Assembly (NCBI GenBank): GCA_963836075.1
Contig: CAWIIB010000009.1
Coordinates: 1,984,001-2,048,000 of the forward strand
DNA from: an uncultured Acidobacteriota bacterium
GTDB taxonomy: Bacteria > Acidobacteriota > JAQAZP01
DNA length: 64,000 nt
Direction: 5' to 3'
Below the pieces are notes generated by a model. That model was given only the letters and a program-made list of their open reading frames with translations, did not search any database and had not been told where the DNA came from. Below, piece after piece: positions 551-64,000 of the stretch. Both the position numbers and the translations under genes were made by a program. Every line of letters starts with the position of its first letter. The first letter of the stretch is position 1.

Positions 551-1717
551 TCAGGGTGCGATCCCGGTCACCGTGCAACTGTCCGAAGCCGTGTCGCCGG
601 CCGGCGGGTAGGGTGGCTGGTTGTATGGCTCGGGGGTGACATCTTCGGCCAGCAGCAGGAAGTGGTTGTCCCCGATCACCGAACCGAGGGCCGGGATGGT
701 GAGGCCAAAGGTGCTGGCGAAACTCTCCCCGGCCGCCACGTTGGTGTATCCGGCACGCCAGCCGGGGAACCAGGCGCCACCGGCCAGGGTGACGTCGATG
801 CGGCCGGCAATCCGGCGCCGCTGCCCCTGGTAGAGGTTGTCCAGGGTCAGGGTGATCAGGGACTGGAACGGCACCGTGCCCGATGAGGGCGAGCAGTCCA
901 GGGCGACGGAAACGGTTTCGCCGGGAACCGGGGATGTGTTGGGAACCAGGTTGTCCACGGCGGCCCGGTTGCTGCCCGAGGCTCTCAGCTGCAGCCACAT
1001 GGTGTCCCAGGTCTCCGGCCCGGCATCGGGATGCAGCCGGCCCAGCTGGAGGTTGATCCCCTGCAGTCCGCTCACCGCCTGGAACTCGGTGTCGCCGTCG
1101 GTGATGTTGAGATAGAACAGGCTCCCCGCCCCCTCTCCGCCGTTGGCGGTGAAGTCGATGCGCAGTTCCATGCGGTACCAGTCATTGCCGCTGTTTCCTG
1201 CGCCAAAGGGCGTGGATGTGGACGCGCCGAAGTTGGCCTCCCGCAGAGTGAAGTTCCTGTCGTAGTCGCCGAAGACCGGCCCCAGCTCGCCGCCGCTGCC
1301 GTTGCTGTAGGGGTCCTCTTCCAGGACGCCGTCACCGTCCAGGTCGTGGCCCAGTCCGAAGAGGGCGAGGTGCTCGCCGTTGAGCTCGAACCGGATCACC
1401 GCATCGGTGGCGGATGAGTTGAACGCCGTGAAACCGAATGCGGTATCGTTGGCCCGGGCGAGATAGACATCCTCGTCAAAGGCCACGGTGGGCAGCGGAC
1501 GGGCGACTTTTGTATCATTGCCGGTATCGTCGAGGTAGATCACACCATCGCCCTGGCCCGGTTTGTCCACCCAGTTGTCATGGCCGTCAATAAAACTGTG
1601 GATCGACAGGGATTCAAAATCGTAGACCTCGGGCGTCTGTGCCGACACCGGGGAGTTCCCGCAAAAAACAGCAATGATAAAAAGCGCGGCGGCCAATACT
1701 TTCCACGGGTGATACAT
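551..1717 (-). CDS. Secreted protein with unknown N-terminal beta-rich domain plus 120-aa CTD-A
   Basis: Signal peptide (MYHPWKVLAAALFIIAVFCGNSPVSA); GAGG upstream of ATG 1717, alternative starts up to 1759; last 120 aa homologous to three other ORFs here. Confidence 0.85.
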   Translation of the reverse strand: MYHPWKVLAAALFIIAVFCGNSPVSAQTPEVYDFESLSIHSFIDGHDNWVDKPGQGDGVIYLDDTGNDTKVARPLPTVAFDEDVYLARANDTAFGFTAFNSSATDAVIRFELNGEHLALFGLGHDLDGDGVLEEDPYSNGSGGELGPVFGDYDRNFTLREANFGASTSTPFGAGNSGNDWYRMELRIDFTANGGEGAGSLFYLNITDGDTEFQAVSGLQGINLQLGRLHPDAGPETWDTMWLQLRASGSNRAAVDNLVPNTSPVPGETVSVALDCSPSSGTVPFQSLITLTLDNLYQGQRRRIAGRIDVTLAGGAWFPGWRAGYTNVAAGESFASTFGLTIPALGSVIGDNHFLLLAEDVTPEPYNQPPYPPAGDTASDSCTVTGIAP

Positions 1718-1786
1718 CTTCATCCTCATACGTTCAACCGCAAATTCATCAATTTCCAACTCTTCCGATTATACCCCTGAATATAA

Positions 1787-5266: not shown

Positions 5267-7556
5267 TCAAGGTGTATCGAAAATACCCCCCGCCACCGTC
5301 CCTCCGCAGAGCAGCCCTTGGTCGGCGTAGGCGTCGAACTCGACCACACTCATCGCTTCGGTGTACAGATTGGTGACCCGCCAGGCCGCAACCATGGCCG
5401 GCTCCCGGCTGTCCGGCCCCGGGACGGTGATGATATCGACGATCCCGTCGCCGTGGACGTCGGCGGCGGCCACGCGGACACCGCAGCGGGTGTCGTCATA
5501 CTCGTAGGCGAAGTAGTTCACCTCCGGCATCGCGGTGACCCCGGCGCCGTCATAGTGCCAGCCGCGCACCTGGGCGCCGAAAACGGGGGAGGGGCCCGGG
5601 CCGGTGAGGATCTCATCCCGGCCGTCACCGTCGATGTCGCCGCAGGCCACGTTGACCCCGTATCTCAGGGTGCCGTAGGCGAAGTAGCTGATCCCGGTGA
5701 TCGGCTGTGCCGCTGTACCGTCGATGTTCCAACCACGGACGTGGGGCCCGAACACCGGGCCGGGGCCGGCACCGGTGACGATCTCGTCGATACCGTCGCC
5801 GTCGATGTCGCCGCAGGCTGTGTTGACGCCCCACTTGAGGGTGCCGTAGGCGAAAAAGCTGACCCCGGGGACCGGCTGAACTGCAGCGCCGTCCACGTTC
5901 CAGCCGCGGACGTGGGGCCCGAACACCGCACCGGGCCCGGCGCCGGTGACGATCTCGTCGAACCCGTCACCGTCGATGTCCCCGCAGGCCACGTTCACCC
6001 CGTACCTGTTCGTGCCGTAGGCCAGGTAGCTGACCCCGGGCACCGGCTGGCCAGATGGGCTGAAGCCCCGGACGTGGGGGCCGAAGATGGCGCCCGGGCC
6101 CGGACCGGTGACGATTTCGTCCAGGCCGTTGCCGTCCAGGTCGCCGCAGGCCACGTTGGCTCCCCAGGCCTGGGCCCCGTACGCCGCCCACGATTCGAGC
6201 GGGATCTCGTCGCCCAGCGGATCGAAGCACCTGACCAGCGGCGGATTGATCGCCGCCGGCCCCGGGCCGGTGACCAGGGTCAGCACCGGGTAGTCCAACT
6301 CATCGTAATACGCGTGGAGAAATTCGTCCCAGGCCGTGTCGGCGGGGAAGTCGAGCTCTACCGCTTCGGTACTGCGGGTCGTACAGCCGCCCGCTCCGGG
6401 GAAAGGAAATGCTCAGGCCGCGGGCGTTTTCCTCGATCGACCCATGGCATTCGGCCACCACCGCGGTTTCCATGGCGGTGCGCACCGCCTGGAGGTCGTC
6501 GAGGATCACCGGGTCGTCGGTCAGTCCGGCCAGCTGTTCGGCGAAGTGGTGGACGTCGATCAGGCCGTAACGTTCGGCGCCCCAGAGGCAGAACTCCTGG
6601 GAGCGGTGGCGGGCCAGACGAATCGGATCGACCAGCGTATCGAGGCGGGGGATCAGGTCGGTGGCCAGCTGGTCGATGGCCGCGGCGGCCCCGGCCATTG
6701 CCGAGGTGTCGGTGGCGCTCATGGTCAGGTAGGTGTAGTCCTGATAGTAGTTGTTCTCCCCCACCAGCCGGATGAGCTCCGCCCCCAGCTCCGCGGACGG
6801 AGTGTCCGGCGCGGCAATGAGCGTGTCGCAGAAGCCGTCGAAAATCCCGTTCCAGCGGGCATATCCGCTCAGTTCCTCGCTGCCCACGTAGACCCCCACG
6901 CTCTCCCGCAGTTCGTAGACCGACTCGAAGCAGCCCATCAGGCAGGGGGCGGTGAAACAGAGCAGGTCCACCGGCCCCGCCTCGCCCAGCGCCAGCTGGA
7001 AATCGTTCATGGTCAGGATGTCGTCGCCGTCGGTTTCGTCAACGCAGGCGCCCCGCCAGGCGCCACCATGGTCGTAGCAGGCCAGCAGGTAGCGGTCTGC
7101 CGGGTAGTTTGCCTTCGCGTAGAGCAGGAAATCCCGCAGCGTGTCGGGGTGGCCCATGTTCAACTCGCCGAGGTCGTCCAGCCTGGTCATCTCGTGGTTC
7201 TCACCGATGTGCCAGATGTCGGCTTCCCTGTAATCCCCGTCCCTGAGAACGAGGACGTTGAGATTCGGTCCCGAGTGGGCGTCCCGGGCGAAATCGTTCA
7301 GCGGGTCGTAGGCGTAGTAGAAGTCGGCGTCGTCGTAGAGGAGGATGGTCCAGGTGGTGGCCCCGGGGGAAGGGTTGGGCCGTTCAGGCACTTCCACTGA
7401 CGGGCGGAGTCGGTGGACCGGCCGGTCCTTTGCCTCGAGGACGCGCAGGGAATCGTTCGGCGAGGGGTAGAACCCGCTTCCCCGGATCTCATCCCCCTTG
7501 GCGGTCGGAGGGAGAAGGACGATGGCCAGCAGCAGGACAAAGAGGGTGCGGATCAT
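5267..7556 (-). pseudogene. Clostripain (C11)-like cysteine peptidase plus CTD-B, split by a +1 frameshift at about 6368 (pseudogene or assembly error)
   Basis: Signal peptide; DHGGAW and FTAPCLMG catalytic motifs; removing one base gives YDPQYEAVELDFPADTAWDEFLHAYYDELDY, colinear with the upstream paralog. Confidence 0.85.
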
Positions 7557-9748
7557 TGGAGTGTACCTCCGGCAATGGTTCCCCCGTGATTCAGCCCCAG
7601 GTCGACGTAGGCATCGATCTCGGCCCGGTTGACCGCAATCACGGTACCATTGGACATGCGCCAGGTGAGAACCAGGGCCGGTTCGTCGGGGTCTGGTCCC
7701 GGGACGGTGAGTATCTCGTCGATGCCGTCGCCGTGGATGTCGGCGGAGGCCAGCTGGACACCGTAGCGGGTAAAAGCGAAATAGTAGGCGAGGAAGTTCA
7801 CTTCGGGCATGGGTGAGACCGAGACGCCGTCATAGCGCCAGCCGCGCACGTGGGCGCCGAACCGATTTGACGGCCCCGGTCCGGTGAGGATCTCGTCCCT
7901 GCCGTCTCCATCCAGGTCGCCGCAGGCCACGTTGACTCCCCACCTGTTGGTTCCGTAGGCGAAATAGCTGACGCCGGGGAGCGGTTGGGCCGCAGCACCG
8001 TCCACGTTCCAGCCGCGCACGTGGGGCCCGAACACCGTGCCGGGGCCGGCGCCGGTGACGATCTCGTCAAAGCCGTCGCCGTCCAGGTCGCCGCAGGCCA
8101 CGTTGACCCCCCACTTGAGGGTGCCGTAGGCGAAGTAGCTGACACCGGGGATGGACTGAACTGTCGTGCCATCCACGTTCCAGCCGCGGACGTGGGGGCC
8201 GAAGACCGCGCCGGGTCCGGGTCCGGTGACGATTTCATCGTATCCGTCCCCGTCCAGGTCACCGCAGGCCACGTTGGCGCCATATTTGTTTGTGCCGTAG
8301 GCCAGGTAACTCACCCCCGGGACCGGTTCGCCGGTGGGGCTGAACCCGCGGACGTGGGGGCCGAAGATGGCTCCGGGGCCCGGTCCGGTGACGATCTCGT
8401 CAAAGCCGTCGCCGTCCAGGTCGCCGCAGGCCACGTTGACCCCCCAGGCCTGGACACCATACGCATGAAAATGACCCTGCATGTCGCCGAATTCCACCGG
8501 GTCGAAGGTCCGGACCAGGGGCGGGTTCTCCGCCCCGGGACCGGGTCCGGTGACGATCATCTCCGCCGGCAGGCCCAGGGCGTCGTAGTAGGCGCCCAGG
8601 AACTCGTCCCAGGCGGTGTCGTCGGCAAAATCGAGCTGCACCGATTCATAGGCCGGGTCGTAGAGCGGCCCGCCACGGTGATAATAGACAGAGAGCCCAT
8701 GGGCCCGCGCATGGATTGGCCCGTGGCACTCGGCCACCACGGCGTCGTCGATGGCCGCTTGAACGCTCTCCAGGTCCTGGAGGATCACCGGGTCGCTGGT
8801 CAGGCCGGCGAGCTGATCGCAGTAATCGTGGAGATCCACCATGCCGAGGTGGTCCGCATACTCCTCCCCCATTTCGTGCGACTGGTTGCGGGCCAGCCGG
8901 AGCTCATCGGTGAGTGAACCGAGGCGGGGGATCAGGTCCTGCCCCAGTCTGTCCACGGCCGTGGCAGCCACGGTGGTGGCGCTGGTGTTGACGGCGCTCA
9001 TGGTCAGGCGACGGTGGTCCTCCCAGTAGTCGTTTTCATCCACCAGCCGAATGATGTCCGCCCCGATGCTTGCTGACGAGTCATCCGGGGAGGAAATGAG
9101 CCGGTCACAGATATCGCCCATGATCTCCAGCCAGTAGATGTAGCCGCTCAACTCTTCGCTGCCCACGTAGATGTCGACGCAGTCCCGCAGCTCGTACGCC
9201 GATTCGATGGCGCCCATGTTGCACGGCGCGGTGAAGCAGATCAGGTCCACCCCCCCGGCCGCGGTGAGTGCCAGCTTGAAGTCGTTCATCGAAAGTTTGT
9301 CGTCGCCGTCGGTGTGGTCGCGGCACGCCCCGGACCAGCCTCCGCCGTGACCGTAGGCGGCCAGCAGATGGCGGTCGGCAGGATAGTGTGTCTTGCCCCA
9401 TTCGAGGAAGGAGAGCAGGGTGTCGGGGTGGCCCATGTTCACCTCGCCCCAGTCCTCGAGGTGGGTCAGTTCGTGATTCTGGCCGACGTGCCACAGGTCA
9501 GCCGGTCCCGCATCCCGGTCCCGCAGGACGATCACGTTGAGGTTCGGCCCTGAGTGGGCGTCCAGGGCAAAGGGCTCCAGCGGATCGAAGGCGCTCTCAA
9601 AATCGGCGTTGTCGTAGAAAAAGAGTGTCCAGGTGGTGCCGCCGGGGGATGGTTCAGACGCCGCAGCGGGAGCGCAGACAAGCAGGGCCAGAACCAGGAC
9701 GGCGGTGAGATTCATCCGGCTCAGAAAGCGCGGGGTAAAACGTAGCAT
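7553..9748 (-). CDS. Clostripain (C11)-like cysteine peptidase plus CTD-B (six GPGP/FG-GAP-like repeats)
   Basis: Signal peptide; WTLFFYDNAD, EVNMG, GHGGGW (His) and FTAPCNMG (Cys); DxDGDGxDEI repeats at the C-terminus. Confidence 0.9.
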   Translation of the reverse strand: MLRFTPRFLSRMNLTAVLVLALLVCAPAAASEPSPGGTTWTLFFYDNADFESAFDPLEPFALDAHSGPNLNVIVLRDRDAGPADLWHVGQNHELTHLEDWGEVNMGHPDTLLSFLEWGKTHYPADRHLLAAYGHGGGWSGACRDHTDGDDKLSMNDFKLALTAAGGVDLICFTAPCNMGAIESAYELRDCVDIYVGSEELSGYIYWLEIMGDICDRLISSPDDSSASIGADIIRLVDENDYWEDHRRLTMSAVNTSATTVAATAVDRLGQDLIPRLGSLTDELRLARNQSHEMGEEYADHLGMVDLHDYCDQLAGLTSDPVILQDLESVQAAIDDAVVAECHGPIHARAHGLSVYYHRGGPLYDPAYESVQLDFADDTAWDEFLGAYYDALGLPAEMIVTGPGPGAENPPLVRTFDPVEFGDMQGHFHAYGVQAWGVNVACGDLDGDGFDEIVTGPGPGAIFGPHVRGFSPTGEPVPGVSYLAYGTNKYGANVACGDLDGDGYDEIVTGPGPGAVFGPHVRGWNVDGTTVQSIPGVSYFAYGTLKWGVNVACGDLDGDGFDEIVTGAGPGTVFGPHVRGWNVDGAAAQPLPGVSYFAYGTNRWGVNVACGDLDGDGRDEILTGPGPSNRFGAHVRGWRYDGVSVSPMPEVNFLAYYFAFTRYGVQLASADIHGDGIDEILTVPGPDPDEPALVLTWRMSNGTVIAVNRAEIDAYVDLGLNHGGTIAGGTLQ

Positions 9749-11704: not shown

Positions 11705-14575
11705 GTGAAACTGCTCAGATACAGCTTGCTGGCTCCTGCTCTGTTGATCGTGGCCCTGCTGGCCGGACCGGGTGATCTCCTTCAGGAGATGGCCGCCGGC
11801 GAGCACCGGCTGACCGAAGTCCAGCGGGAAGCGACCCTCCTGGCGCTGGAAGAAAAGCGGGCCCGGCTGGAAGCGCGGAAACTGAAACCGATGGACCAGC
11901 CGCAGGAAGCGGCGGAGTTCTTCCTCCAGCAGCGGTTGGAGCCGGGGCAGGACAAACTGCCGGTGGGGCGGATGCGGGCGGAGCTGGAGGGGATCAAAGC
12001 TCGTGAAGCGGCACTGGCTGGTGAGGACCGGGAAAGGGGACCGGGCGGCATCTCCAGCTGGCAGTCCATCGGGCCGGGCAACATCGGCGGCCGCACCCGC
12101 TCCATCGTCATCGACCCGGACACCCCCGACACGATGTACGCGGGCGGGGTGGCCGGCGGGATCTGGAAGTCCACCGATGCCGGGGCCAGCTGGAACGCGG
12201 CCGACGACCTGATGCTCAACCTCAGGGTCTGCGCCCTGGCCATCGACCCCACCAATACCAGTGTGCTCTATGCCGGCACCGGTGAGGGTGTGTTCAGCGG
12301 CAGTGGCACCGGAGGCCTGGGCATCTTCAAGTCCACGGATGCCGGGGCCAGCTGGAACCAGTTGGCCGGGACGGTGAGCGGCGTGCCCGAGGGTGCGTTC
12401 AATTTTGTCAACGAGATCGTGATCAGTCCCAATGACTCCAGCCGCCTCTACGCCGCCACCCGCACCGGGGTCTGGCGCAGCACCGATGCCGGGGAGAACT
12501 GGTCCCACCTGCTGGGCAACCCGCGGCATCTCTCGGGCCCGTACAACTCCAACGGGTGTGTGGTGGGCTGCAGCGACCTGGCCGTGCGCAGCGACCGCAA
12601 CCCGGACACGCTCTTTTCCGCCTTCGGCATCTACGAGTCGGACGGGCTCTACCTCTCCGAGGACGGCGGCGACTCCTGGATCGGTTACACCACCGGGCCG
12701 GAGCAGGGCCGGATGGAGATCGCCATCGCGCCGAGCAACAACGACGTGATCTACCTCACCATGGCCGACAACGGCACCGCTGTCCAACTGGGGCGGCTGA
12801 TCAGTGTCTTCCGCGCCGACGACGGCCTGAACTTCAGCGCGGTACTCGACCTGGAACACCCCTTCAGCCCCTGGCTGTTCAGTTACCTGGCCATCGCCAC
12901 CGGCTGCTACGAGCACCCGACAATTTACTCCCAGGGATGGCACGACAATGTCATTGCGGTGGATCCGATCAACCCGGAGATCGTCTGGGTGGGCGGTATC
13001 GACCTGTTCCGTTCAGATGACGGCGGCCAGACCTTTGGCCTGGCCAGCTACTGGTTCTACTTCCTCTGGGATCCCCAGCCCGCCACCTATGTGCACGTGG
13101 ACCAGCACGAGATCGTCTTCCATCCCGGATACAACGGCCTCAGCAACCAGATCATGTATGTGGGCAACGACGGCGGCGTGTGGCGCACGGCCAACGCCCG
13201 GGCCGCCACCACCGAGGAGGAGTGCCCCATCGGTCCGGACCCCGGCCCGCCGCCGGAGATCGTCTGGGAGAACATGAACAACGGCTACGGGGTGACCCAG
13301 TTCTACCACGGCGATGCCGCCCTGACAGCCGACCGCTTTGTGGGTGGTGCCCAGGACAATGGTTCGGCCCAGGTGCTGTCTGCCGGGACCCCGGACAGCT
13401 GGGAATACGTGTACAGCGGCGATGGCGGGTACGTGGCCATCGACCCGCGGGACGACCGGCACTACTTCGTCGAGATCCAGGGCTTTCCCACAATCGCCGA
13501 AACCAACAACGGCGGTATCTCATTCAGTCCAGCGGTAAACGGTATCACCGACACCGACGGCATCTTCATCAACCCCTTTGCCATGGACCAGTCCAATCCC
13601 GACGTCATCTGGACCGGCGGCCGCCGCCCCTGGCGCACCATCGATGGCGCCGGCCTGTGGGAGCTGGCCGGGCCCAATTTCAGCGGTGCGGACAGACTTA
13701 CGGCCATCAATATTTCCCCGGCGGACAGCAACGTGGTCTGGTTCGGCTTCAACAACGGTTATGTGGCCCGGACCACCAACGGTCTGGCCGAGAAGCCGGA
13801 CTTCGAGGTCTTTGCCAACGGCCTGCCGGGCGGGTGGATCAGCAGCGTGGCCGCCGACCCGGTGGACACCGAAACGGCTTACTGCACGATCTCCTCATAT
13901 GGCGTGCCCCACGTGATGAAGACCACTGACGGAGGCAGCAACTGGGCCTCCATCGACGGCATCTCGGTCACCGGCGTGCCCGACATCCCGGTGCACTGGA
14001 TCGCCGTCCGTCCCGGCAACCCGCAACAGCTCTACGTGGGCACCGAGTTCGGCGTCTTTGCCAGCGACGATGGCGGGGGAACCTGGTTCCCGGCCAACAC
14101 AGGGCTGGCCCACACCATCGTGGAATCTCTCGACTGGAAGGATCCGGACACTCTGGTGGCCTTCACCCATGGCCGCGGGGCCTACGTCACCCACCTGGAT
14201 AGCATCGCCACCATCGATGCGGCCCTGGTCTGTGAGCCCTCCACCGGCACCCTGCCCTTTGTCACCCAGCTGTGGGTCACCCTGGGCAATCTCTACGCCG
14301 GGCAGACCCGGCGGGTGGCCGCCCGTCTGGATGTGCAACTGGCCGCGGGTGCCTACTTTCCGGGATGGCGCGCGGGATACACCAACATCGGTCCCGGGGG
14401 CAGCTATTTCACCTCCTGGAACCAGAACCTCCCGGCCCTGGGTACACTGGTGGGAGAGAACGTCTTCACCCTGGCTGCCGAGGACGTGACGCCGTCACCC
14501 TACAATCAGCCGCCCTATCCGCCGGCCGGGGATACCTGCACTTCGCAGCAGATTTTCACTGCTCTGGCGCCCTAA
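11705..14575 (+). CDS. Secreted BNR/Asp-box (VPS10/GH74-like) double propeller protein plus CTD-A
   Basis: Signal-like N-terminus; many SxDxGxxW Asp-boxes; GPGNIGGR, HVDQH, GAQDNG and THGRG motifs; terminal 120-aa CTD-A. Confidence 0.88.
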   Translation: MKLLRYSLLAPALLIVALLAGPGDLLQEMAAGEHRLTEVQREATLLALEEKRARLEARKLKPMDQPQEAAEFFLQQRLEPGQDKLPVGRMRAELEGIKAREAALAGEDRERGPGGISSWQSIGPGNIGGRTRSIVIDPDTPDTMYAGGVAGGIWKSTDAGASWNAADDLMLNLRVCALAIDPTNTSVLYAGTGEGVFSGSGTGGLGIFKSTDAGASWNQLAGTVSGVPEGAFNFVNEIVISPNDSSRLYAATRTGVWRSTDAGENWSHLLGNPRHLSGPYNSNGCVVGCSDLAVRSDRNPDTLFSAFGIYESDGLYLSEDGGDSWIGYTTGPEQGRMEIAIAPSNNDVIYLTMADNGTAVQLGRLISVFRADDGLNFSAVLDLEHPFSPWLFSYLAIATGCYEHPTIYSQGWHDNVIAVDPINPEIVWVGGIDLFRSDDGGQTFGLASYWFYFLWDPQPATYVHVDQHEIVFHPGYNGLSNQIMYVGNDGGVWRTANARAATTEEECPIGPDPGPPPEIVWENMNNGYGVTQFYHGDAALTADRFVGGAQDNGSAQVLSAGTPDSWEYVYSGDGGYVAIDPRDDRHYFVEIQGFPTIAETNNGGISFSPAVNGITDTDGIFINPFAMDQSNPDVIWTGGRRPWRTIDGAGLWELAGPNFSGADRLTAINISPADSNVVWFGFNNGYVARTTNGLAEKPDFEVFANGLPGGWISSVAADPVDTETAYCTISSYGVPHVMKTTDGGSNWASIDGISVTGVPDIPVHWIAVRPGNPQQLYVGTEFGVFASDDGGGTWFPANTGLAHTIVESLDWKDPDTLVAFTHGRGAYVTHLDSIATIDAALVCEPSTGTLPFVTQLWVTLGNLYAGQTRRVAARLDVQLAAGAYFPGWRAGYTNIGPGGSYFTSWNQNLPALGTLVGENVFTLAAEDVTPSPYNQPPYPPAGDTCTSQQIFTALAP

Positions 14576-15661: not shown

Positions 15662-17410
15662 ATGGCAAGGTGGCTGTGCATCAAGCTGCCGTCGGTGATT
15701 CTCCTGTCCCTGCTGCTGGTGGTTGCCTCGGTGTTTTCCGGGGCAGCATTTGCGGCGGAGGATCTGGAGATCATCCAGGCGGTGAAGAACGGTACCCCCG
15801 TTTCGGGGGGCAATCGGGTGGTCATGGGCGAGGTGTTCGCCCGCGACGGCTGAGCGTACTGTCCCTCTGCGGAGCAGGGGATGATAGACCTCTTGGCCAA
15901 CTTCGGTGACGACGAATTCGTCTGTGTCATGTACTACTCCACCAGCGGCTGGTCCTGCCCGGAGCACGGCGACCGTGCCGGTCTCTACGGTGTGAGCGGT
16001 GTGCCCGACGCTTATTTCAGCGGTTATCTTAACTCTCTCGGCGGGCTGCCCAGTGGCTCGATGTATGACTACTACCTGCCCCTGGTGAACCAGGTCATGG
16101 CCAATCCCGGTATGTTGGCAATGTCACTGGACATGACCATCGATGCCGGTACCATCACCGTCAACGGCACCATCGAGGCCCTGGAAAACGCCCCCGATGC
16201 CCTCGTCTACGTCGTGGTCTACGAAGAGGACTCGGGCCGTGAGCCGAACCTGGCCCGTGGCTTCCCGGTGTGGGAGACCATGCTCACCGCCACCACCACC
16301 GGCGCGACCCAGGACATCAGCGGCACCCTGGCCGTGGGCACCGGCTGGAACGAGGCCAACCTCCACGCCATCATGTTTGTCCAGGCCCTGCAGGACTTCA
16401 CGGCCACCCGGATCGTCACCGGTCCCGGCCCCGGCCCGGACAACGTCTGCCGCCTGGCCGCCTGGGTCCCGGAGAATCCAGGCACTGCCGACGTGACCAT
16501 CAACGCATACGGCGTGGACAAATACGGCGTCAACGTGGCCGTGGGCGACCTCACCGGCGATGGCTTTGACGAATTCCTCACCGGTCCCGGACCGGGCGCG
16601 GTCTTCGGCCCGCAGGTGCGCGGTTTCAACTACGAAGGCGACCAGCTCCCCGGCCTCAGCTATTTTGCCTATGGCACCCTGAAATACGGGGTCAACGTGG
16701 CTGCCGGCGACTTGGACAATGACGGTGTGGCCGAGATCCTCACCGGCGCCGGACCGGGCGCGGTCTTCGGCCCCCACGTTCGCGCCTGGAAGTACAACGG
16801 CAGTGAGGTGAGTTCCATGCCGGGGATCAGTTACTTCGCCTACGGCACACCAAAGTATGGTGTAAACGTGGTCTGCGGTGACATCGACGGCGACGGTTTT
16901 GACGAGATCATCACCGGTGCCGGACCGGGCGCGGTCTACGGCCCGCACGTGCGCGGCTGGAACTACGACAATGACACCCTCACCTCGATTCCCAGTGTGA
17001 GCTTCCTGGCTTACAACACCAACAAGTTCGGCGTAAACGTGGCCTGCGGTGACATCGACGGTGACGGGATGGACGAGTTGATCACCGGTGCCGGCCCCGG
17101 CGCGGTCTTCGGGCCGCACCTCCGTGGCTGGAACATCGACGGCGGTACGGTCACGGCCATTTCCGGAATCAACACCATGGCCTTCGACTACACCGAGTGG
17201 GGTATCAATGTTGGTTGTGGAGACGTGGACCGTGACGGCATGGACGAGATCTTTGTCGGTGCCGGTCCCGGCGAGGCCCACGACGCCTGGGTCCGCGGCT
17301 TCAACTATGACGGCGGCACGCTGGAGATGGTGTATGACTTCACCGCCTACGGCGCCCCGGTCATCACCCACGGTGTCAACGTGACCTGTGGCTACTTCTT
17401 CGCCCCGTAA
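15662..17410 (+). CDS. Secreted Omp28/thioredoxin-like selenoprotein (UxxC) plus CTD-B
   Basis: ORFs 15632-15853 and 15881-17410 share a frame; TGA 15851-15853 reads VVMGEVFARDG-U-AYCP; signal peptide in the first half; YGVSGVP cis-Pro loop; SECIS-like hairpin follows the TGA. Confidence 0.85.
15862..15881 (+). promoter_or_regulatory. Candidate bacterial SECIS element
   Basis: TCCC(T)CTGC-GGA-GCAGGGGA hairpin with a bulged U and a G-first apical loop 17 nt after the UGA. Confidence 0.7.
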
Positions 17411-17631: not shown

Positions 17632-18987
17632 TTACTCGCTGTCCTCTTCGATGTAGCCCAGGGAGCGGAGCCGTTCGAGGGTCTCCTCGTCGTGCTCCTC
17701 TTCCTCCAGCACCTTGCCGCCGGTGAGGTCCTTGATCCGCTGCAGCAGTTCCCGGGCCAGGGGTTCTTCCTCGCCGGCCAGGTCGAGGTCCTCCCCCTCA
17801 GCCAGGCGGTGCAGTCGGATGACTTCCCCCTGGTCGCTCTCGATGGCCATCAGTTTCCAGCCGTCGGCCACGATGCTCTTGGAGAGTACGGTCCGCCCCT
17901 GGACCCGCTTGCGCATCTCGGAGAAGGCGAAGCTGTCCGGCCGCTCCTCCCCATGGATCAGCGGCAGCATTGAGCCACCGTCCACGGTGCGTTCATTCTC
18001 GATCCCCAGCAACTGGAGCAGGGTGGGTAGCAGGTCCACCGACTGGGTCACCGACTCCACCCTCCGGCTGCCTGCCATACCGGGCACCCGCAGCAGCAGA
18101 GGCACCCGGGTTTCGGTGTCGAAAAGCCCCTTGTAGTGGCCGGTGTAGAAGGCGCTTTTTTCCTGCAGCAGGAAGTCCCGGCCGTCGTGATCGCCAAAGG
18201 CTTCGCCGTGGTCCGAGGTGATCACCACGATGGTCTCGTCAGCCAGGTCCAGTTCCTCCAGTTTGTCCAGCAGCATCCGCACCTTGCTGTCCACGAAACG
18301 GATCTCACCGTCGTAGAGCGCGGCCTGCCGCTCATTGCCCTTCAGCCCCTCGCTCCATAGGTCGTATTCATCGATGGGATTGTACTCCGCGTGGGGGTCC
18401 CAGTAGTGGACAAAGAGGAAGAACGGCTCCCTGGTGTTGCTGTCCAGCCACTGCAGGGCCGCGTTGGTGGTCTGGTAGAAGCCGGTGTCGTGCTTGTTGC
18501 GATACTGCCGTTCGTTGAACCGCTCGAAGTGCCCGAACACGGTTCCGAGGAATTTGACCATGTCGTTGCTGATAAAGGCCGCCGTGCGGTAACCCGCCTC
18601 CCGCAGCACCAGGGTCATCACCGGCGCGTCGGTCATCTCCCCCTCGGCGGCCAGGGAGATGGATTCGCCAAAGTTGTGGGGGTAGCGGCCGGTGAAGTTG
18701 GACCAGTGGGACCCGGGGGTGAAGGGGATCGAACAGTAGTGGTTCTCGAAGAGGACGCTTTCCGCAGCAAAGGCGTCGATGTTCGGCGAGGTCTCCCGCT
18801 CGTGCCCGTAACAGGATAGGTGATCGGCCCGCAGCGTGTCGATCATGATGAAGAGCAGGTTGGGCCGGGCCGGTTCCGGTTCGGCCTGACGGCAGGCTGT
18901 GGTGGCCAGGATTGTCCCGCTGAGGAAGAGGACGACCAGGGAGATGGCGAATGCGAGATGGCGGATATTGTGGAGTCTTGCACGCAT
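17632..18987 (-). CDS. Sulfatase-like (alkaline phosphatase superfamily) probable lipoprotein, Thr-type
   Basis: IDTLRADH, PFTPGSH, HYWDPH, TSDHGE and terminal LRSLGY; possible lipobox TTAC. Confidence 0.85.
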   Translation of the reverse strand: MRARLHNIRHLAFAISLVVLFLSGTILATTACRQAEPEPARPNLLFIMIDTLRADHLSCYGHERETSPNIDAFAAESVLFENHYCSIPFTPGSHWSNFTGRYPHNFGESISLAAEGEMTDAPVMTLVLREAGYRTAAFISNDMVKFLGTVFGHFERFNERQYRNKHDTGFYQTTNAALQWLDSNTREPFFLFVHYWDPHAEYNPIDEYDLWSEGLKGNERQAALYDGEIRFVDSKVRMLLDKLEELDLADETIVVITSDHGEAFGDHDGRDFLLQEKSAFYTGHYKGLFDTETRVPLLLRVPGMAGSRRVESVTQSVDLLPTLLQLLGIENERTVDGGSMLPLIHGEERPDSFAFSEMRKRVQGRTVLSKSIVADGWKLMAIESDQGEVIRLHRLAEGEDLDLAGEEEPLARELLQRIKDLTGGKVLEEEEHDEETLERLRSLGYIEEDSE

Positions 18988-19270: not shown

Positions 19271-19966
19271 ATGACCATGTCAAGGAAACTGACCGCCGAG
19301 TTCATCGGCACCTTCTGGCTCGTGCTGGGCGGGTGCGGCAGCGCCGTGCTGGCGGCGGCCTACCCTGAACTGGGAATCGGCTTTCTGGGGGTGGCGCTGG
19401 CCTTCGGGCTGACCGTGCTCACCATGGCCTTCGCCATCGGCCACATCTCCGGCTGCCACCTCAACCCTGCTGTCTCCATCGGCCTCTGGTCCGGCGGCCG
19501 GTTTGCGGCAAAGGATCTGGTGCCCTACATCATCGCCCAGGTGGCTGGCGGCATCGCCGGCGGCGCGGTGCTCTACATCATCGCTTCGGGAAGCGGCGCT
19601 TTCGACCTGGCCGGCGGTTTTGCCTCCAACGGCTATGGCGCCCACTCGCCCGGCGGGTACAGCCTGCTGTCGTGCCTGGTGGCCGAAGTGGTGCTGACCT
19701 TCATGTTCCTGCTGATCATCCTCGGCTCCACCGACGAACGGGCGCCGGCCGGCCTGGCCCCCGTTGCCATCGGCCTGGGGCTGACCCTGATCCACCTGAT
19801 CAGCATCCCGGTGACCAACACATCGGTGAACCCGGCCCGCAGCACCGGTGTGGCCGTCTTTGTCGGCGGCTGGGCCACGTCCCAGCTGTGGCTCTTCTGG
19901 GTGGCCCCGATTATCGGCGGTATCCTGGGCGGGATCGTCTACCGCTGGATGGGCAGCAACAAGTAG
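19271..19966 (+). CDS. aqpZ: Aquaporin Z
   Basis: [26 protein letters not shown] and TSVNPARS (two NPA motifs). Confidence 0.95.
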
Positions 19967-20010
19967 CCGGCCGAGTTCCACGAACGAATCGACTGGAGTT
20001 TTTCACAACC

Positions 20011-21178: not shown

Positions 21179-21368
21179 CCGTGGGATAGTCTATTGCTAC
21201 GGGTCGGCGTACCGAATCACTGCCGTTTACCAAGCCCACAGCATGGGCGGCCTGATCTCCCGTTCCACCGGGTTGCGGTCCGCCGGCAGAAAACCTATAT
21301 TGAACGTGATCAAAGCGGTTCCCGCCTGTGGTTTTATTAATCCTGGTTACGAGTCGGGGGTATCGGTC

Positions 21369-23249
21369 ATGAAACGGGATTCGGGTAATAGTGTTTTTTT
21401 CTTGGCCGTGGTCCTGTCAATTGTTGCGCTGCTCGGGCTTTCCACTGTTGCGACGGCCCTGGACACCATTGGCAGCGCCGGGGGCGGGCCGCTGGACGGC
21501 ATGCTCCAGGTGCAGGTGCTGCACGCCGGCACGGGCGCACCCTTTGCCGGGGCCTTCGTTATGGTGGGTGATGCCCCCGGATCCCCTTTTGCCGGCAACT
21601 GGGGCGTCACCTCGGCTTCCGGTGACATCACCTTTACCGACCCTGCCCTCCAGGGGCCGCTCACGGTGACCGCCGGGGCCGCGGGGCACCGCTATGTCAC
21701 CATGGTCCTCGCCGACGCCAGCCAGCTGGTGCTGGCCCTCGAGCCGGTGGCCTCCCTGACCTTCCTCTCCGAAGTGGGGGACTATGTGTCGGGGGTGGAC
21801 GTGGACAACGGGACCTTCAACTTCGGCGACGGAAACGTCGATGTGGCCTTTGTGCTGCGGGCCATGACCCTCGACGACATGATGTCCTTTGACATGGAGA
21901 ACATGTTCGGGCCGGAGGAGTTCATCGATATCCTGGGCCAGCCGTTCCCGGTGCCCTCCAACGTCTTCATCCCCCTGCAATACGAAACCTTCATCCCCAT
22001 CGTCAAGGACCACTACTACCTGTACCTGACCCCCGGGGACGCCACTCTGGCCGCGCTCTCCGGCCGGATGCCGCTGGCTGAGCTGGCGGCCGGCGGCGAG
22101 ATGGTCGACCTGCTGCCCCACATCCAGTGGCGGGAGATGGACGTGCTGGACATCACGGTGGCCGGCGACACCTCCGACGCCGACCTCACCGTCGACCCGG
22201 ACCTCAGCGCAACCGTGACCCTCAACCTGGACAACATTCCTGATGGTTGCACCGGGTTCGGGCTCTCCATCGGCGACCTGGATGGCCTGAACGGCCTGGG
22301 CCGCCTGGTCCCCCTGGGCATGAGTTCCATCGGCTGCCCTGACGGCAGCGGTCCCTGTTCGGGCACCCTGACCCTGACCACCGCCGCCGCCACCGGCGAG
22401 CTGGCCGGCATGGGCTATTTCCCGGCCGCCGCCGTGCAGGGTGACCTGACCAACGATGCGCTCTTTGTCATGGACCGCTCTTCCCACAGCCAGACCTACA
22501 CGGCCACCATCGATTCCTTTTACAACCGTCTCGACCTGGCCTACGGGGCGGGCGGGTTCGCCTGGAACGATGCGGAAAACGCCGCCACCGGCAGCCCGGT
22601 TGTGGACCTCCAGCTGGCCCTGATCTCCAACCCGTTGAACGACGAGGTCTACTGGGAGTTTTTGCTTCCCGGGGGAGCACTCTCCCTGACAATACCCCAG
22701 CTGCCGCCCGAGGCCCCGGCCGGCCTGGTACCGGGCACCGGCTACAACTGGGCTCACACCGCCCTGGGACTGGCCTACGACCTGGCGGTCTTCGACTACG
22801 GGGATTTCGCCTTCTCGGCCATCATTGCCCATGTCAGCCATCTGGCAACCAACAGCCTGGACATCACCTGGGACGCGGCCGGCACGGTCTCCGCGTCCCT
22901 GAGCTGCCTGCCGTCCTCCGGCACCGTTCCCTTTGCCACCGGCATGCAGGTCATGCTGACCAACCTGTACAGCGGCCAGAGCCGCCGGGTGGCCGGCCGC
23001 CTCGATGTCCTGCTGGCCGGCGGCGCCAATTACGGCAACTGGAGGGCCGGCTACACCAATCTCGGTCCGGGGGAAAGCTGGAGCGCTTCCTGGAACACCA
23101 CCATCCCGGCCCTGGGCAGCGTGATCGGTGAGAACAGTTTCACCCTGGTGGCGGTGGATGTGACGCCGTCCCCGTTCAACCAGCCGCCCTACCCGCCGGA
23201 CGGCGATTCGGACCAGGCGGTCTGTCTGGTCACCGGGGTTGCGCCCTGA
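21369..23249 (+). CDS. Secreted protein (carboxypeptidase-regulatory-like N-domain, unknown core) plus CTD-A
   Basis: Signal peptide after MKRDSG; VQV…TGAPFAGAFV…GVTSASG beta-sandwich pattern; terminal 120-aa CTD-A. Confidence 0.82.
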   Translation: MKRDSGNSVFFLAVVLSIVALLGLSTVATALDTIGSAGGGPLDGMLQVQVLHAGTGAPFAGAFVMVGDAPGSPFAGNWGVTSASGDITFTDPALQGPLTVTAGAAGHRYVTMVLADASQLVLALEPVASLTFLSEVGDYVSGVDVDNGTFNFGDGNVDVAFVLRAMTLDDMMSFDMENMFGPEEFIDILGQPFPVPSNVFIPLQYETFIPIVKDHYYLYLTPGDATLAALSGRMPLAELAAGGEMVDLLPHIQWREMDVLDITVAGDTSDADLTVDPDLSATVTLNLDNIPDGCTGFGLSIGDLDGLNGLGRLVPLGMSSIGCPDGSGPCSGTLTLTTAAATGELAGMGYFPAAAVQGDLTNDALFVMDRSSHSQTYTATIDSFYNRLDLAYGAGGFAWNDAENAATGSPVVDLQLALISNPLNDEVYWEFLLPGGALSLTIPQLPPEAPAGLVPGTGYNWAHTALGLAYDLAVFDYGDFAFSAIIAHVSHLATNSLDITWDAAGTVSASLSCLPSSGTVPFATGMQVMLTNLYSGQSRRVAGRLDVLLAGGANYGNWRAGYTNLGPGESWSASWNTTIPALGSVIGENSFTLVAVDVTPSPFNQPPYPPDGDSDQAVCLVTGVAP

Positions 23250-34701: not shown

Positions 34702-34956
34702 GCGGATACTCCATTCTGGTGATTCGGAAACGAAATTGGACAACGGATATGGAACCATTATAGTCCGTGACGGCATGGTTCGTCGATTCTGGTGCGGGGT
34801 GGCTGGGTCCGGGCAGGAATATGGAGAGGTGTAACTTCCTGTGATAAACTGTCATCACCATTAGCGTTTTATTATCAATGTTTACAGCTGATTCTGAAGA
34901 TGATTCTCGGAATCGGGGGTTCAGGTGGCCACGGCCGGCCTGGAGGGGAGTGTGAC

Positions 34957-43100: not shown

Positions 43101-43208
43101 GGTCCCATAACTCCTGTGGGTTGATTTCCGGGTCAGTATGACATCAAATATATAGTTCCGGACAGATTTTTTCTAATATTGCCGGCCGGTTTCCTGGTGC
43201 CGCAGTCC

Positions 43209-60418: not shown

Positions 60419-63400
60419 CTAGGGTGCGATACCTTCCACCGTGCAACTGGCCGTGTCGGTGTCTCCGGAGGCGGGGTAGGGCGGCTGGTTGAACGGCGCC
60501 GGGGTCACGTCCTCGGCCACCAGGGTGAAGCTGTTCACTCCCACCAGTGATGGGATGGCCGGCATATTCTGGGTCCAGGTGGTGTAGTAGCTCGCTCCGG
60601 CCTGGATAATCGTGTTGCCGGCGCGCCAGTTGGGATAGAACTGGCCGTTGGCCAGCGTCACGTCGAGGTGTGCGGCCAACCGGCGGCGGTCACCGGAGTA
60701 GAGATTTTCCAGCAGCACCGAGAACCGGGTGGTGAAGGGCACCGTGCCGGAGGACGGGTTGCAGTTCATGCTGACGTCCAGTGTGCCGACGGAGCCGCTC
60801 CAGGGCTGACACTCTGCACCGGTGACGGTCACGTCGTCGATATACCAGCCGTCGTCATCCACCGACGAGTCGCAGCCGATGCGGAAGCGGATCAGCGCCT
60901 CGGTCCCGGCATACGCCGCCAGGTCGGCGGTGACCCGGGTCATGGTGGCGCCGCTGTCCCCGGACCAGGCGGCCTGTCCGCCGATGGGGTTGCTGCAGCA
61001 GGTGGAAATGGTGTCGTTGTACTCGCCCTCGATGATCATCGGGCCGAGGTCCTCCCAGCCGGCGCCGCCGTCGGTGGAGATCTCGATCACACCGCCGTCG
61101 TAGCCGGTCTCCATGTTGTAGCGGTGCCAGAAAGTCAATTCGGAGAGCGGGGTAAGGGTCACCGTCCGCGAGACGAGGAACTTGTCCGTCACAATGCTCG
61201 GGTCCGAAGCGAACCAGACGTTGTCCGGGCTGTGGGCATAGGAACTGGTGATGATCCCCCAGTCGTCTGCGCCCTGGTCCGCGGAGTGGGTCCACTCGCC
61301 GGGGCCGGCCTCGATGTCGTCTTCGAGGAAGACCGAGGTGCCGCCCACCTGGACGTAGAGCGTGTCGCTGGCGCTGCCCTGGTCGGTGGAGATGTCCACG
61401 TTGAAGCTCAGCATCTGGCCACAGGCCGCCGTGAGGTTGATGGCGAAGCGGGGGTTGGGGCTGAGGCTCGTCCCGGTGGCGCCGGAGATGATGTCGTCGA
61501 AAGTCGCGGTGTCGTCGAGCAGCACCACGAAGGCCGGATCATTGCTGGTGATGGTGGCGCTGACGCCGGTTGTGTTCACCGCGCCGACGTTCTCCAGGGT
61601 CAGTTCCACAAAGACCGTCTCGCCCATGTCGGCGTTGCCGTCCCCGTTGCCATCGGGGAAGTCGGTGATCGCTGAGGAGTGCAGCGTCATCTGCCCCGCT
61701 TCCACCACGATGAAGAACGTGGAATACCAGGTGTCTCCGCTGCTGGCGATCTCCACGTCGAACTGGATGATCTCACCGTGGGGGCAGGAGGAGAGCACGT
61801 CGAAGACGATGGGGTCGGGGTTGATCAACGACTCGTCGGGGTTGAAACTGCCGTAGGTGGAGCTGTTGTCGAGGAACGAGATGTGACCGCTGGGGCTGCT
61901 CACCGTGGCCACCACGCCGTTGGCGGTCTCCACGCCATAGTTCTTCAGGCCCAGTTCCAGCTCGATGGTCTCGCCCGGAGTGGCGATGCCGTCGCCGTTG
62001 CCGTTGGAGTAACCGCTGGCGTCGTCATCGAGGGCATGACTCTCGTAGACCACGTACGGCCCCGAGGGCGGAATCACCGGGATCGCTTCCTGGTAGGTCA
62101 GCATGTTGTGGGCCGTGACCGTGATGGTCAGTGAACCGGGGACCACCGGCGGCGTGCCGAAGGTCAGGGTCACCGCACCGGAGGCGTCGGTGTAGCCCAC
62201 TTCGTAGACTTCGTCGTTCTGGGCGCAGACCATGGCGCCCTCGATACCGGTGGAGACCTGCAGCGTGCCGGTGCCGATGATCATCGCCCCGGGGTGGGCC
62301 ACCGTGGGCATGGCCATGGTGTCGGTCCAGGGATCGATGCAGGAGTCACCCAGCCAGAGGTAGGTGCGGATGTTCGACTCGCCCAGATAACCGTGGTCAT
62401 TGTAGACCGTGACATTGGCGAAGTTGGAGGCGTAGCCGAGGTTCCTGATCCCCAGGTCGAAGATCGCCTTGTAGAACTCCTTGTCGTAGTCGTGATTGGG
62501 GATGGTGTAGGAGGGGATGATTGCCCCGTTGATCGCCACCGCGCCGGCGGTGGTCTTCATCATCGTCTCGGCGAAGCAGTCCCCGCTGTGGGCCGGGAAG
62601 TCCATGTTGTCGCAACAGACGTCGAAGTGCACGAAGTAGCGGTCGACATTGGTGAACTGGTTGACGTGGGAGGCGTTGAAGTCGCCGCTGGTGCCCCACT
62701 CCCACCAGGCTTCCGTGGAGCCGTGGCCGCGGTAGTTGAGAATCCCGGAGCTGTAAGTGTTGATGTAGTCGATCACATCCTGGTTGCTGGCCCCGGCGCC
62801 GCCGTAAGCGGTGTCGAAGTCCGGCGTCTCCAGCGAGTAGGCGTAGGTCCGGATCTCCTCACTGCACTGGGTGTACTTGCCGGGTACTCCTCCGAGTGGG
62901 CCACCAGCAGGCTGTGCTTGGCCCAGTCCGAAACCTCAGGCGCGGTGAGGTAGTCCATGGTCTTGTTGATCTGGTGTTCGAGCTCTGCCGCGGTGTCGTA
63001 CAGAATGCGACCGATGGCCATGTCGGCCAGGTAGTCGCCGGAGCCGTCCATCATCGTATACCAGGAGTCGGAATAGGAGTCGGACCAGTAGTACATCGGC
63101 ACATCGACGCCGCCGGCGCCGCTGTAATAGGCGTCGCCCACCAGCAGCACGTATTCCAGGCCGCTGTCGTTGTAGAGCTGGGTGATGTAGGCCTTGATCT
63201 CCTCCGCGGTTTCAAAGCCGGGCTCGAGGGTCCGCACCTCCACCGGGTAGCCCTGGGCGTGGCGGAAGTCCACCAGCGGCTGGATGTAGGGGATGCAGGC
63301 CGGGGTGGTCACCACCAGGTACCTGGTCCCCGGGGTCACCGAGCCGCGTCCGGCCGTCGGGTAGCCCAGCCGGTCATAGTTGATCACCGCCGAACGGTAG

Positions 63401-64000
63401 AGGTTCTGGAACGGGGCGCTGATCGGACTGCGCTGGCGGGTGAACGCGCGGAGCGGGTTGATGCCGGTGTAGTTGACGGTGACCCGCATCCGGGTGGCCA
63501 CGGTGATCTCGTTTCGTGCCGGGTTGCAGGTGATCGGCCGCATCTCCAGCCGGGTCAACCGGACGTCCCGCCAGATCTGCGGGTCGCCGGCCACCGCCAC
63601 GCTGGCGGGATACGTCTTGTCCAGGCCGTAGGTCGCGCGGTCCACGGTGAAGGCCGTTGCCGGTTCGCTGTCCTTCAGCGGCTGCTGGGCCGGCCAGACG
63701 GTATACCCGGTCAGGGTTACGGAGTCGAGGATTTCAGAGCTGACGATGTAGCCGGCCCGATCGGGAATGCCCACCAGCTGGGCCACCACCGGCAGCTGGG
63801 GCAGGCCCACCCGCCGGAGGGCCGCATCGCTGCCCAGGCTCAGCCGCTGGTAGAGCGTGCCGTCCGCGGTGATCTGTTCCGCATCGAAACCGCTGACCGA
63901 AACCTCGATCACGGTGGCGGCGGAATCATGGGCGACCAGGTCCACCCGGGGGGCAGTGGGTGCGGCACCGTCCAGGGTGATCCACTCCGCGCTGGCCGGG
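60419..64000 (-). CDS. Gingipain (peptidase C25)-like protease with propeptide, Ig-like domains and CTD-A; -1 frameshift at about 62882; 5' end just outside window
   Basis: GLPQLP propeptide; YVLLVGD, SDSWY and IGRI; NYRGHG (His) and DVCC (Cys); adding one base joins the two ORFs (EEYPGKYTQCSEEI); terminal 120-aa CTD-A. Confidence 0.88.

Follow-up and report, generated by a model that had tools for sequence, protein, structure and literature searches.

An unnamed C-terminal domain ends about 190 predicted secreted proteins in one acidobacterial genus and may act as a sorting or surface-anchoring tag

Why should several unrelated secreted proteins, encoded close together in one bacterial genome, all end in the same 120 amino acids? 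The question is raised by a stretch of 64,000 nucleotides from an uncultured Acidobacteriota bacterium (contig CAWIIB010000009.1 of assembly GCA_963836075.1, positions 1,984,001 to 2,048,000), referred to below as the window. The original prediction, made from the letters of this stretch, was that four genes of the window share a C-terminal domain, here called CTD-A. We found that this nameless domain ends about 190 secreted proteins in one genus and is therefore most likely a sorting or surface-anchoring tag. With a probability of roughly 45%, we consider it a self-folding, eight-stranded immunoglobulin-like (Ig-like) C-terminal module that targets a large part of the secretome in a single acidobacterial genus.

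The four copies in the window, with the threonine codon that precedes each of them (position -1), are as follows.

551..913, minus strand: CTD-A copy 1, 120 amino acids and the stop codon at 551-553; profile match E 6.8e-66; Thr(-1) codon 914-916
14213..14575, plus strand: CTD-A copy 2, 120 amino acids and stop codon; profile match E 5.8e-66; Thr(-1) codon 14210-14212
22887..23249, plus strand: CTD-A copy 3, 120 amino acids and stop codon; profile match E 1.2e-65; Thr(-1) codon 22884-22886
60419..60781, minus strand: CTD-A copy 4, 120 amino acids and stop codon; profile match E 8.5e-67; Thr(-1) codon 60782-60784

The segments had been described as 363 nt long and alignable without gaps, and this was borne out: all four translate to 120 residues and a stop codon, they align ungapped at both the protein and the DNA level, and the motifs that had been read from them, as well as the final Ala-Pro directly before the stop, are present in every copy. 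At the protein level the other three copies are 57, 62 and 55% identical to copy 1 (the pairwise range for the four tails is 55–62%), and 49 columns are invariant. The DNA alignment (363 columns) has a mean column identity of 79% with many synonymous differences, and so the conservation is at the level of the protein. A profile built from the four copies retrieves every one of them from the genome at E 1e-65 to 1e-67, which rules out a chance resemblance. The predicted length of 120 residues held, whereas the predicted start did not: Thr precedes all four copies, and the conserved unit thus comprises 121 residues. The same Thr is found at position -1 in 159 of 186 genome copies, and the residues ahead of it are small. 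The window tails end in C-T-V-T-G-I-A-P, with no hydrophobic helix, and the second of their two Cys residues lies at position 113 except in copy 2, where it is residue 109.

The passengers of the four copies are indeed unrelated, as had been claimed, but the number four proved far too low. In the window's own genome (6,227,877 bases, 10 contigs, 94.7% complete) the four-copy profile gave at least 150 matches with E 8.5e-67 to 1.3e-38 (150 of 306 candidates were scored). An hmmsearch over all stop-to-stop open reading frames (ORFs) of this genome returned 228 domain hits in 221 ORFs. The score was 40 bits or more for 210 hits, of which 155 end exactly at the stop codon. Full-length copies lying within 8 residues of a stop number 188, which corresponds to about 4.7% of the non-shadowed ORFs of at least 200 amino acids (188/3974). 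Iteration of the profile inside the genome converged at 224 ORFs and reached no other family.

The 188 copies are uniform in architecture and diverged in sequence: their median pairwise identity is 48%, 170 have no insertion, and the last residue is Pro in 150. Cys is present at column 7 in 153 copies and at column 113 in 136. When the second Cys is allowed anywhere in columns 109-116, 131 copies have both residues, 22 have the first alone, 13 have the second alone and 22 lack both, an odds ratio of 10 for paralogues that are not independent of one another. This co-occurrence agrees with the disulfide that had been suggested. Among the top 150 public representatives, CTD-A is C-terminal in 146 and present twice in 9. 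Eight representatives (P0009-P0016) end in two full copies, seven of them in tandem with linkers of 5-8 residues, while in P0014 the two copies lie about 180 residues apart; in P0073 a complete internal copy precedes an incomplete one, and CTD-A is not C-terminal there.

CTD-A was detected in three of 301 genomes of the phylum (185 genera), namely the window's genome and two other species of its genus, and in none of the 298 phylum genomes outside the genus. A pattern scan of 185,579 species genomes yielded 174 confirmed stretches, the best 80 of which all lie in two assemblies, one of them titled 'Acidobacteriota bacterium', and a metagenome scan yielded 353, the best 80 of which come from a few contig-name series. 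Of 1.84 billion representative proteins searched, those that match at E 0.001 or better number 506; 470 of these do so at 1e-10 or better, and hence there is no twilight tail. In the sister genomes 80 of 82 CTD-A tails are C-terminal. Fifty-one orthologue-like pairs showed a median tail identity of 0.77, against 0.84 for the last 300 passenger residues. In 29 of these pairs the tail is more similar to its orthologue than to any paralogue, which indicates that the expansion of CTD-A predates the split of the species and proceeded without strong concerted evolution. The 29 pairs and the median identity of 48% both uphold the earlier view that the copies reflect conservation of the protein and not recent duplication.

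The carriers have the appearance of secreted proteins. Judged by a hydrophobicity heuristic of our own and not by a trained predictor, a signal-peptide-like N-terminus is present in 121 of the 153 carriers of at least 400 amino acids, compared with 171 of 600 control ORFs; 117 of the 121 have an AxA-type site without a lipobox and two have a lipobox. Many of the short carrier ORFs have no signal peptide. The passengers were surveyed with Pfam in the 40 carriers (out of 188) that have the most divergent tails. They include (i) peptidases (Peptidase_C25, S8, M14), (ii) a PAD_porph deiminase, (iii) FG-GAP, beta-helix/NosD, Chlam_PMP and BNR domains, and (iv) MAM, BACON, multihaem cytochrome (cytochrome c) and PETase-like domains, while 11 of the 40 carriers have no Pfam family. 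Over the tail itself Pfam gave nothing in these 40 carriers at E up to 1e-5, CARDB included. No low-complexity or flexible linker was seen before CTD-A in the genome copies. Public entries for proteins with CTD-A are named 'hypothetical' or take the name of the passenger, and assign no Pfam domain to the tail.

The position of CTD-A could be compared with that of known C-terminal tags, as other phyla contain homologues, 60-70% identical, of the Sortilin/BNR passenger of host gene 2 (the gene that ends in copy 2). Of 120 listed homologues, 19 carry FlgD_ig or Por_Secre_tail, four Dockerin_1 and two IPTL-CTERM; a Pfam scan of 20 Sortilin/BNR homologues placed these tag domains at the extreme C-terminus. 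In BLAST, homology to those that bear a dockerin and to those that lack a tail stops at residues 831-841 of the host 2 protein, and CTD-A starts at residue 837; alignments to two other homologues run on to 870-882. For the PAD_porph passenger, 43 of 120 listed homologues have tails of the kind used by type IX secretion systems (T9SS) and five have dockerins. Since the homologues of both passengers carry sorting or anchoring tags there, CTD-A occupies the place that such tags hold in other lineages.

Dockerins are small calcium-binding helical modules that decide where enzymes assemble. Like CTD-A, the type I dockerin (PF00404) is a lone module at the C-terminus of many unrelated secreted enzymes, and it fills the same slot in homologues of the two passengers. 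CTD-A differs in that it has no Pfam match, its structural model is all-beta and no cohesin-like partner was found for it. With no Pfam hit and an all-beta model, assignment of CTD-A to this family was rejected.

CTD-A is a family without a name in Pfam or NCBIfam, as the original prediction had supposed. At E up to 1 the four tails match none of the families in these two collections, with CARDB, FlgD_ig and Por_Secre_tail among those covered. Sequence searches of the PDB with profiles of four and of 74 sequences (the latter comprising the four window copies, the 30 best-scoring and the 40 most divergent genome copies) gave nothing below E 1. No description of CTD-A was found in the literature, with three motif strings among the queries; supplements and most subscription journals lay outside the coverage.

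The anticipated Ig-like fold received support from an AlphaFold2 model, which predicts an eight-stranded Ig-like sandwich with a mean predicted local distance difference test score (pLDDT) of 97.6 and a predicted template modelling score of 0.87. The neighbours of the model are of the Ig, fibronectin type III (FnIII), CARDB and macroglobulin kinds: RbmA (FnIII; Z 11.4-12.4), the factor XIII barrel (Z 12.0), CARDB 3idu (Z 10.1-10.9, root mean square deviation 2.3-2.4 A over 97-99 residues, 12% sequence identity) and macroglobulin domains (Z about 10.5). Of 48,161 representative chains, 73 match the model at Z of at least 8, without any one family standing out. The T9SS CTD is absent from the fold matches listed in the Foldseek/PDB and wider structure searches. 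CTD-A is thus predicted to be an autonomous fold of a generic Ig-like type. Residues 92-107 of the model form an ordered, strand-free Pro-rich loop between strands 7 and 8 (pLDDT 97-99), which was located by translation, alignment and model in all four copies.

593..643, minus strand: Pro-rich loop of copy 1, residues 91-107 (DVTPEPYNQPPYPPAGD), the most conserved stretch
14483..14533, plus strand: Pro-rich loop of copy 2
23157..23207, plus strand: Pro-rich loop of copy 3
60461..60511, minus strand: Pro-rich loop of copy 4

In three divergent CTD-A-like tails of the genome the sandwich and the Cys pair are kept and the loop is deleted; these are possibly precursors or degenerate forms.

G000:C9:1048599-1050836, plus strand: loop-less CTD-A-like tail
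G000:C1:1909419-1911146, plus strand: loop-less CTD-A-like tail
G000:C1:2190795-2194280, minus strand: loop-less CTD-A-like tail

The terminal position, the fixed length and end, the number of copies, the signal peptides, the diversity of the passengers and the equivalence of slots together constitute the signature of a sorting or anchoring tag. Haft et al. (2006, PMC1569441) recognise a sorting signal by (i) a C-terminal homology domain, (ii) many copies per genome if there are any, (iii) signal peptides and (iv) diverse passengers, and CTD-A displays all four. If CTD-A is such a tag, the precursors would be exported by Sec and their type-I signal peptide removed. The domain would then fold in the periplasm or outside the cell, where a disulfide linking Cys7 of strand 1 to the Cys at about 113 in strand 8 could lock it. 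The Pro-rich loop (DVTPxPYNQPPYPPxGD) and the fixed C-terminal Ala-Pro may be bound by a lineage-specific component of the envelope, and this binding would set the fate of the passenger, most likely retention on the cell surface or in an envelope matrix. The outer membrane could be crossed by a general route, e.g. through secretin-type channels of the genome; each of the three genomes of the genus encodes two secretin-family proteins, which score below the GspD cut-off. By analogy, CTD-A would be the functional counterpart of the T9SS CTD, the dockerin and the IPTL-CTERM tail, while being unrelated to them in sequence. We infer the binding of a partner, the role of the loop as the contact and retention at the surface rather than export alone, and the same holds for whether the tail is ever cleaved.

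Several points weigh against this interpretation. A strictly terminal position and a fixed last residue are equally typical of a cleaved export signal. The signal-peptide counts come from the heuristic mentioned above. The screen of CTD-A gene neighbours yielded no dedicated partner; only proteins with a second tail, CTD-B (see below), recur there. Moreover, the tail evolves slightly faster than the end of the passenger, and hence, its motifs aside, it is not unusually constrained. Finally, one lineage (three genomes and a few metagenome series) supplied all of the evidence, and arguments from co-distribution therefore amount to a single evolutionary event.

The alternative that survives best, which we nevertheless regard as unlikely, is that CTD-A is an outer-membrane export signal similar to the T9SS CTD, serving an undescribed translocon. 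It would be recognised in the periplasm, pass the outer membrane by threading or shuttling, and be removed at the conserved Thr|Val junction, perhaps by one of the genome's many C25 peptidases. The strict C-terminal position, the uniform length and the Pro that is last in 150/188 copies would fit such a signal, as would the Thr at -1 (159/186) with small residues ahead of it. T9SS CTDs of type A (PF18962/TIGR04183; FlgD_ig, PF13860) share with CTD-A the Ig-like sandwich, the extreme C-terminal position, the many copies and the diverse Sec-exported cargo, which in both cases includes C25 (gingipain-like), S8 and M14 peptidases and a peptidylarginine deiminase of Porphyromonas type; they also occupy the equivalent slot in orthologous passengers. 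The RgpB CTD is described as an Ig-like sandwich of seven strands preceded by a 9-residue linker (PMC4804311). CTD-A differs from the type-A CTDs in its 120 residues, eight strands, conserved Cys pair, 16-residue Pro-rich loop and lack of a linker; the missing disordered linker and the existence of tandem double tails speak against a cleaved signal.

A machinery that would serve such a signal was also sought. In favour of this alternative, the genome encodes a tail-less PorU-like C25 peptidase of 914 amino acids, although it reaches only 201.9 bits to NF033707 against a cut-off of 420.

G000:C1:1027244-1029985, minus strand (L035:10242-12986): PorU-like C25 peptidase, among housekeeping genes

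Homologues of this peptidase are present in 113 of the 301 phylum genomes (one of the 113 being the unpublished genome G151), full-length ones with 36-43% identity occur in families without CTD-A, and no orthologue was found in the sister genome G007. Its distribution therefore does not follow the tail, and on this ground, as well as for its housekeeping-type neighbourhood, it was rejected as a dedicated CTD-A sortase. PorV (NF033710, PF19572) gave no match in the genomes G000, G007 and G026, with PF19572 positive in the control, Bacteroides thetaiotaomicron. SprA and GldM (TIGR04189, PF14349, TIGR03517) gave no match either, but these profiles were silent in every control genome too, including five phylum genomes with type-A CTD hits. 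SprA-like giant barrels were also sought by size. Of 23 ORFs of at least 1400 amino acids, only two end in a barrel-type terminal Phe, and both candidates were rejected as TamB-Omp85 fusions.

G000:C9:2267510-2274079, plus strand (L158): TamB-TamA/BamA-like fusion, ~2180 amino acids
G000:C9:1011951-1018487, plus strand (L159): TamB-TamA/BamA-like fusion, ~2180 amino acids

These fusions combine in one frame an AsmA/TamB-type region (TamB DUF490 at ~1060-1410), three to five POTRA domains and an Omp85 barrel. Two further observations concern the phylum as a whole. C25 homologues are widespread in it (113/301 genomes) though T9SS tails are rare there. The only sampled genome with many type-A tails is G204 (14 over the cut-off), in which SprA_N and PorV were not detected; this genome (83% complete, 3% contamination) could represent a binning artefact or a divergent system.

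The missing linker, the occasional tandem copies, the lectin-like alternative tail (CTD-B) and the failure to detect a dedicated translocon incline us to see CTD-A as a binding module that is retained, more than as an export signal that is cleaved.

An improbable explanation is that CTD-A is an accessory Ig-like module, i.e. a spacer, stabiliser or substrate-binding domain of the CARDB, PKD or CBM-like kind, spread by domain shuffling and without any role in targeting. The generic fold (Z 10-12 to the RbmA FnIII, the factor XIII barrel, CARDB and macroglobulin, none of them outstanding) is compatible with this proposal, and so are the tandem copies and the vertical evolution of the tail with its passenger. 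The nearest protein-language-model clusters in the ESM Atlas are CARDB, with a weak similarity of 0.90-0.91 and 161-162 shared features. CTD-A and CARDB (PF07705; 3idu) thus have in common the Ig-like sandwich and this neighbourhood, but there is no hidden Markov model match at E up to 1 and the CARDB fold match ranks below those of RbmA and factor XIII; CARDB is a neighbour at the level of the fold only. CARDB domains are not confined to the C-terminus. Accessory Ig-like domains normally vary in place and number, in contrast to CTD-A, which is terminal in 188 of 210 good hits, nearly always single, and fixed in length and last residue. Furthermore, its passengers have no common substrate or activity, and their orthologues carry bona fide sorting or anchoring tags in that slot.

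Another explanation involves the second tail. CTD-B is a C-terminal module of ~335 amino acids with FG-GAP-type repeats, found on six proteins of the window (49-73% identical).

5267-6298, minus strand: CTD-B carrier
7553-9748, minus strand: CTD-B carrier
15881-17410, plus strand: CTD-B carrier
26299-28404, minus strand: CTD-B carrier
28397-30472, minus strand: CTD-B carrier
34792-37014, plus strand: CTD-B carrier

The hosts of CTD-B are unrelated to one another (Peptidase_C11, N-glycanase_C, BNR_2), and by BLAST 104 ORFs of the genome terminate in the module. Its model is a six-bladed propeller (pLDDT 91.7), the best fold matches of which include the UmbA4 and Psathyrella lectin propellers, kelch and integrin headpieces. 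Among the 301 genomes CTD-B is strong only in the three of the genus, with one weak hit elsewhere. CTD-A is present in none of the 148 ORFs with a CTD-B module, so that the two tails are mutually exclusive. Their genes are moderately clustered: for 127 of the 188 CTD-A genes a further gene of either kind lies no more than 5 kb away, compared with 89.9 +/- 7.6 under random placement. The CTD-B family is the commonest neighbour (69 ORFs beside 67 CTD-A genes), and no other recurrent non-tail gene family was found beside CTD-A genes, regulators and kinases occurring at low counts.

It might be supposed from these data that CTD-A and CTD-B form a binding pair resembling cohesin and dockerin: the Ig-like tails of one set of proteins would dock onto the propeller tails of the other, and some 300 secreted proteins would thereby be joined in an enzyme matrix bound to the surface. 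The mutual exclusivity, the clustering and the restriction of both strong tails to the same three genomes would agree with this, and FG-GAP propellers, whether integrin-type or lectin-type, are ligand-binding modules. However, the co-distribution comes from one lineage only, exclusivity and shared islands would equally fit two alternative anchors for one kind of cargo, and the closest propeller matches bind glycans, not proteins. We consider such a pair quite improbable.

Least of all do we believe that CTD-A is a highly diverged true type-A CTD served by a T9SS that the profiles missed: fold class, position and type of cargo are shared and a short stretch with a similar hairpin pattern aligns to T9SS-type tails, but the CTD-A alignment of 74 sequences reached an hhalign probability of 3.6% when compared with 19 T9SS-type tails from orthologues, no TIGR04183, PF18962 or PF13860 match was obtained (the genome-wide TIGR04183 search returned one hit, of 19.5 bits, below the cut-off of 23 and away from the CTD-A sites), the domain has 120 residues and eight strands against the seven given for RgpB (PMC4804311), PorV is absent with a working control, and type-A CTDs exceed the cut-off in 13 of the 301 phylum genomes and in none of the three of the genus. 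Assignment to the T9SS fails on three counts, namely the profiles, PorV and the way in which the PorU-like peptidase is distributed.

CTD-A was also set beside other C-terminal families. A TIGRFAMs model bears the name 'Solibacter uncharacterized C-terminal domain', which we take to be an unexplained C-terminal domain expanded in another acidobacterial lineage. Such lineage-specific paralogous domains of other Acidobacteria resemble CTD-A in having many unexplained copies in one acidobacterial lineage; CTD-A does not belong to the Solibacter model, because the NCBIfam scan of tails and hosts gave no such match at E up to 1. The PEP-CTERM/exosortase, GlyGly-CTERM/rhombosortase and IPTL-CTERM systems show the same genomic signature (PMC1569441; PMC3237569). 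According to the former, signals of the PEP-CTERM type have about 25 residues and consist of a motif, a transmembrane helix and a basic cluster (PMC1569441), whereas CTD-A, with its 120 residues, is globular and has no hydrophobic helix. Lacking a helix at its end as well as any NCBIfam or Pfam match, CTD-A was rejected as a PEP-CTERM, IPTL-CTERM or GlyGly-CTERM signal.

The genes that carry the four copies in the window are listed below; hosts 1-3 start with a plain Sec signal peptide.

551..1759, minus strand: host gene 1, passenger without a Pfam or NCBIfam family; Sec-type signal peptide (MRMKMYHPWKVLAAALFIIAVFCGNSPVSA) from an ATG near 1729
11705..14575, plus strand: host gene 2, signal peptide, Sortilin/BNR propeller passenger and CTD-A
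21243..23249, plus strand: host gene 3, likely start at Met43 (about 21369), signal peptide; weak, sub-threshold CarboxypepD_reg match in the passenger
60419..63999, minus strand: host gene 4, gingipain-like C25 peptidase in two frames

In host gene 4 the ORF 62776-63999, which runs off the window, contains Propeptide_C25 and positions 1-167 of the C25 profile, and the ORF 60419-62776 contains C25 positions 225-369, a C25 Ig-like domain, a MAM domain and CTD-A. The change of frame at about 62,775 is either an assembly frameshift or the mark of a pseudogene. Directly upstream of host gene 3, at 19672-21123 on the plus strand, lies a gene for a DUF481 protein (a putative outer-membrane barrel family). 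Four sulfatase genes of the window are located beside the secreted peptidases and glycan-related enzymes.

17632-18987, minus strand: sulfatase
43179-44660, plus strand: sulfatase
46134-47471, minus strand: sulfatase
58661-60247, plus strand: sulfatase

This set suggests an island for the breakdown of sulfated polymers.

Bacterial C-terminal tags decide the fate of exported proteins and, to our knowledge, the discovery of each tag family so far (LPXTG, PEP-CTERM, T9SS CTD, GlyGly-CTERM) has brought a new enzyme for sorting or a new machine for secretion to light. We rate CTD-A as a probable new C-terminal tag family. CTD-A is tag-like in a phylum largely without T9SS, and its partner system, if found, would be new. 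As the same passengers carry T9SS tails, dockerins or IPTL-CTERM elsewhere, CTD-A offers a clean test case for how a lineage invents or replaces a secretome-wide label. A CTD-A profile would annotate several hundred 'hypothetical' public proteins and flag the extracellular degradative enzymes of these sediment bacteria. More speculatively, CTD-A (~190 proteins) and CTD-B (~100) might together represent an undescribed, genus-specific two-tag system, acting through a new outer-membrane sorting pathway or through docking to each other or to a surface glycan; as it stands, we hold this to be possible but doubtful. If true, such a system would organise about 300 secreted proteins, i.e. ~7% of the ORFs of at least 200 amino acids, in a diderm without a detectable T9SS, and mutual or glycan docking of the tags would create a cell-bound enzyme matrix analogous to the cellulosome.

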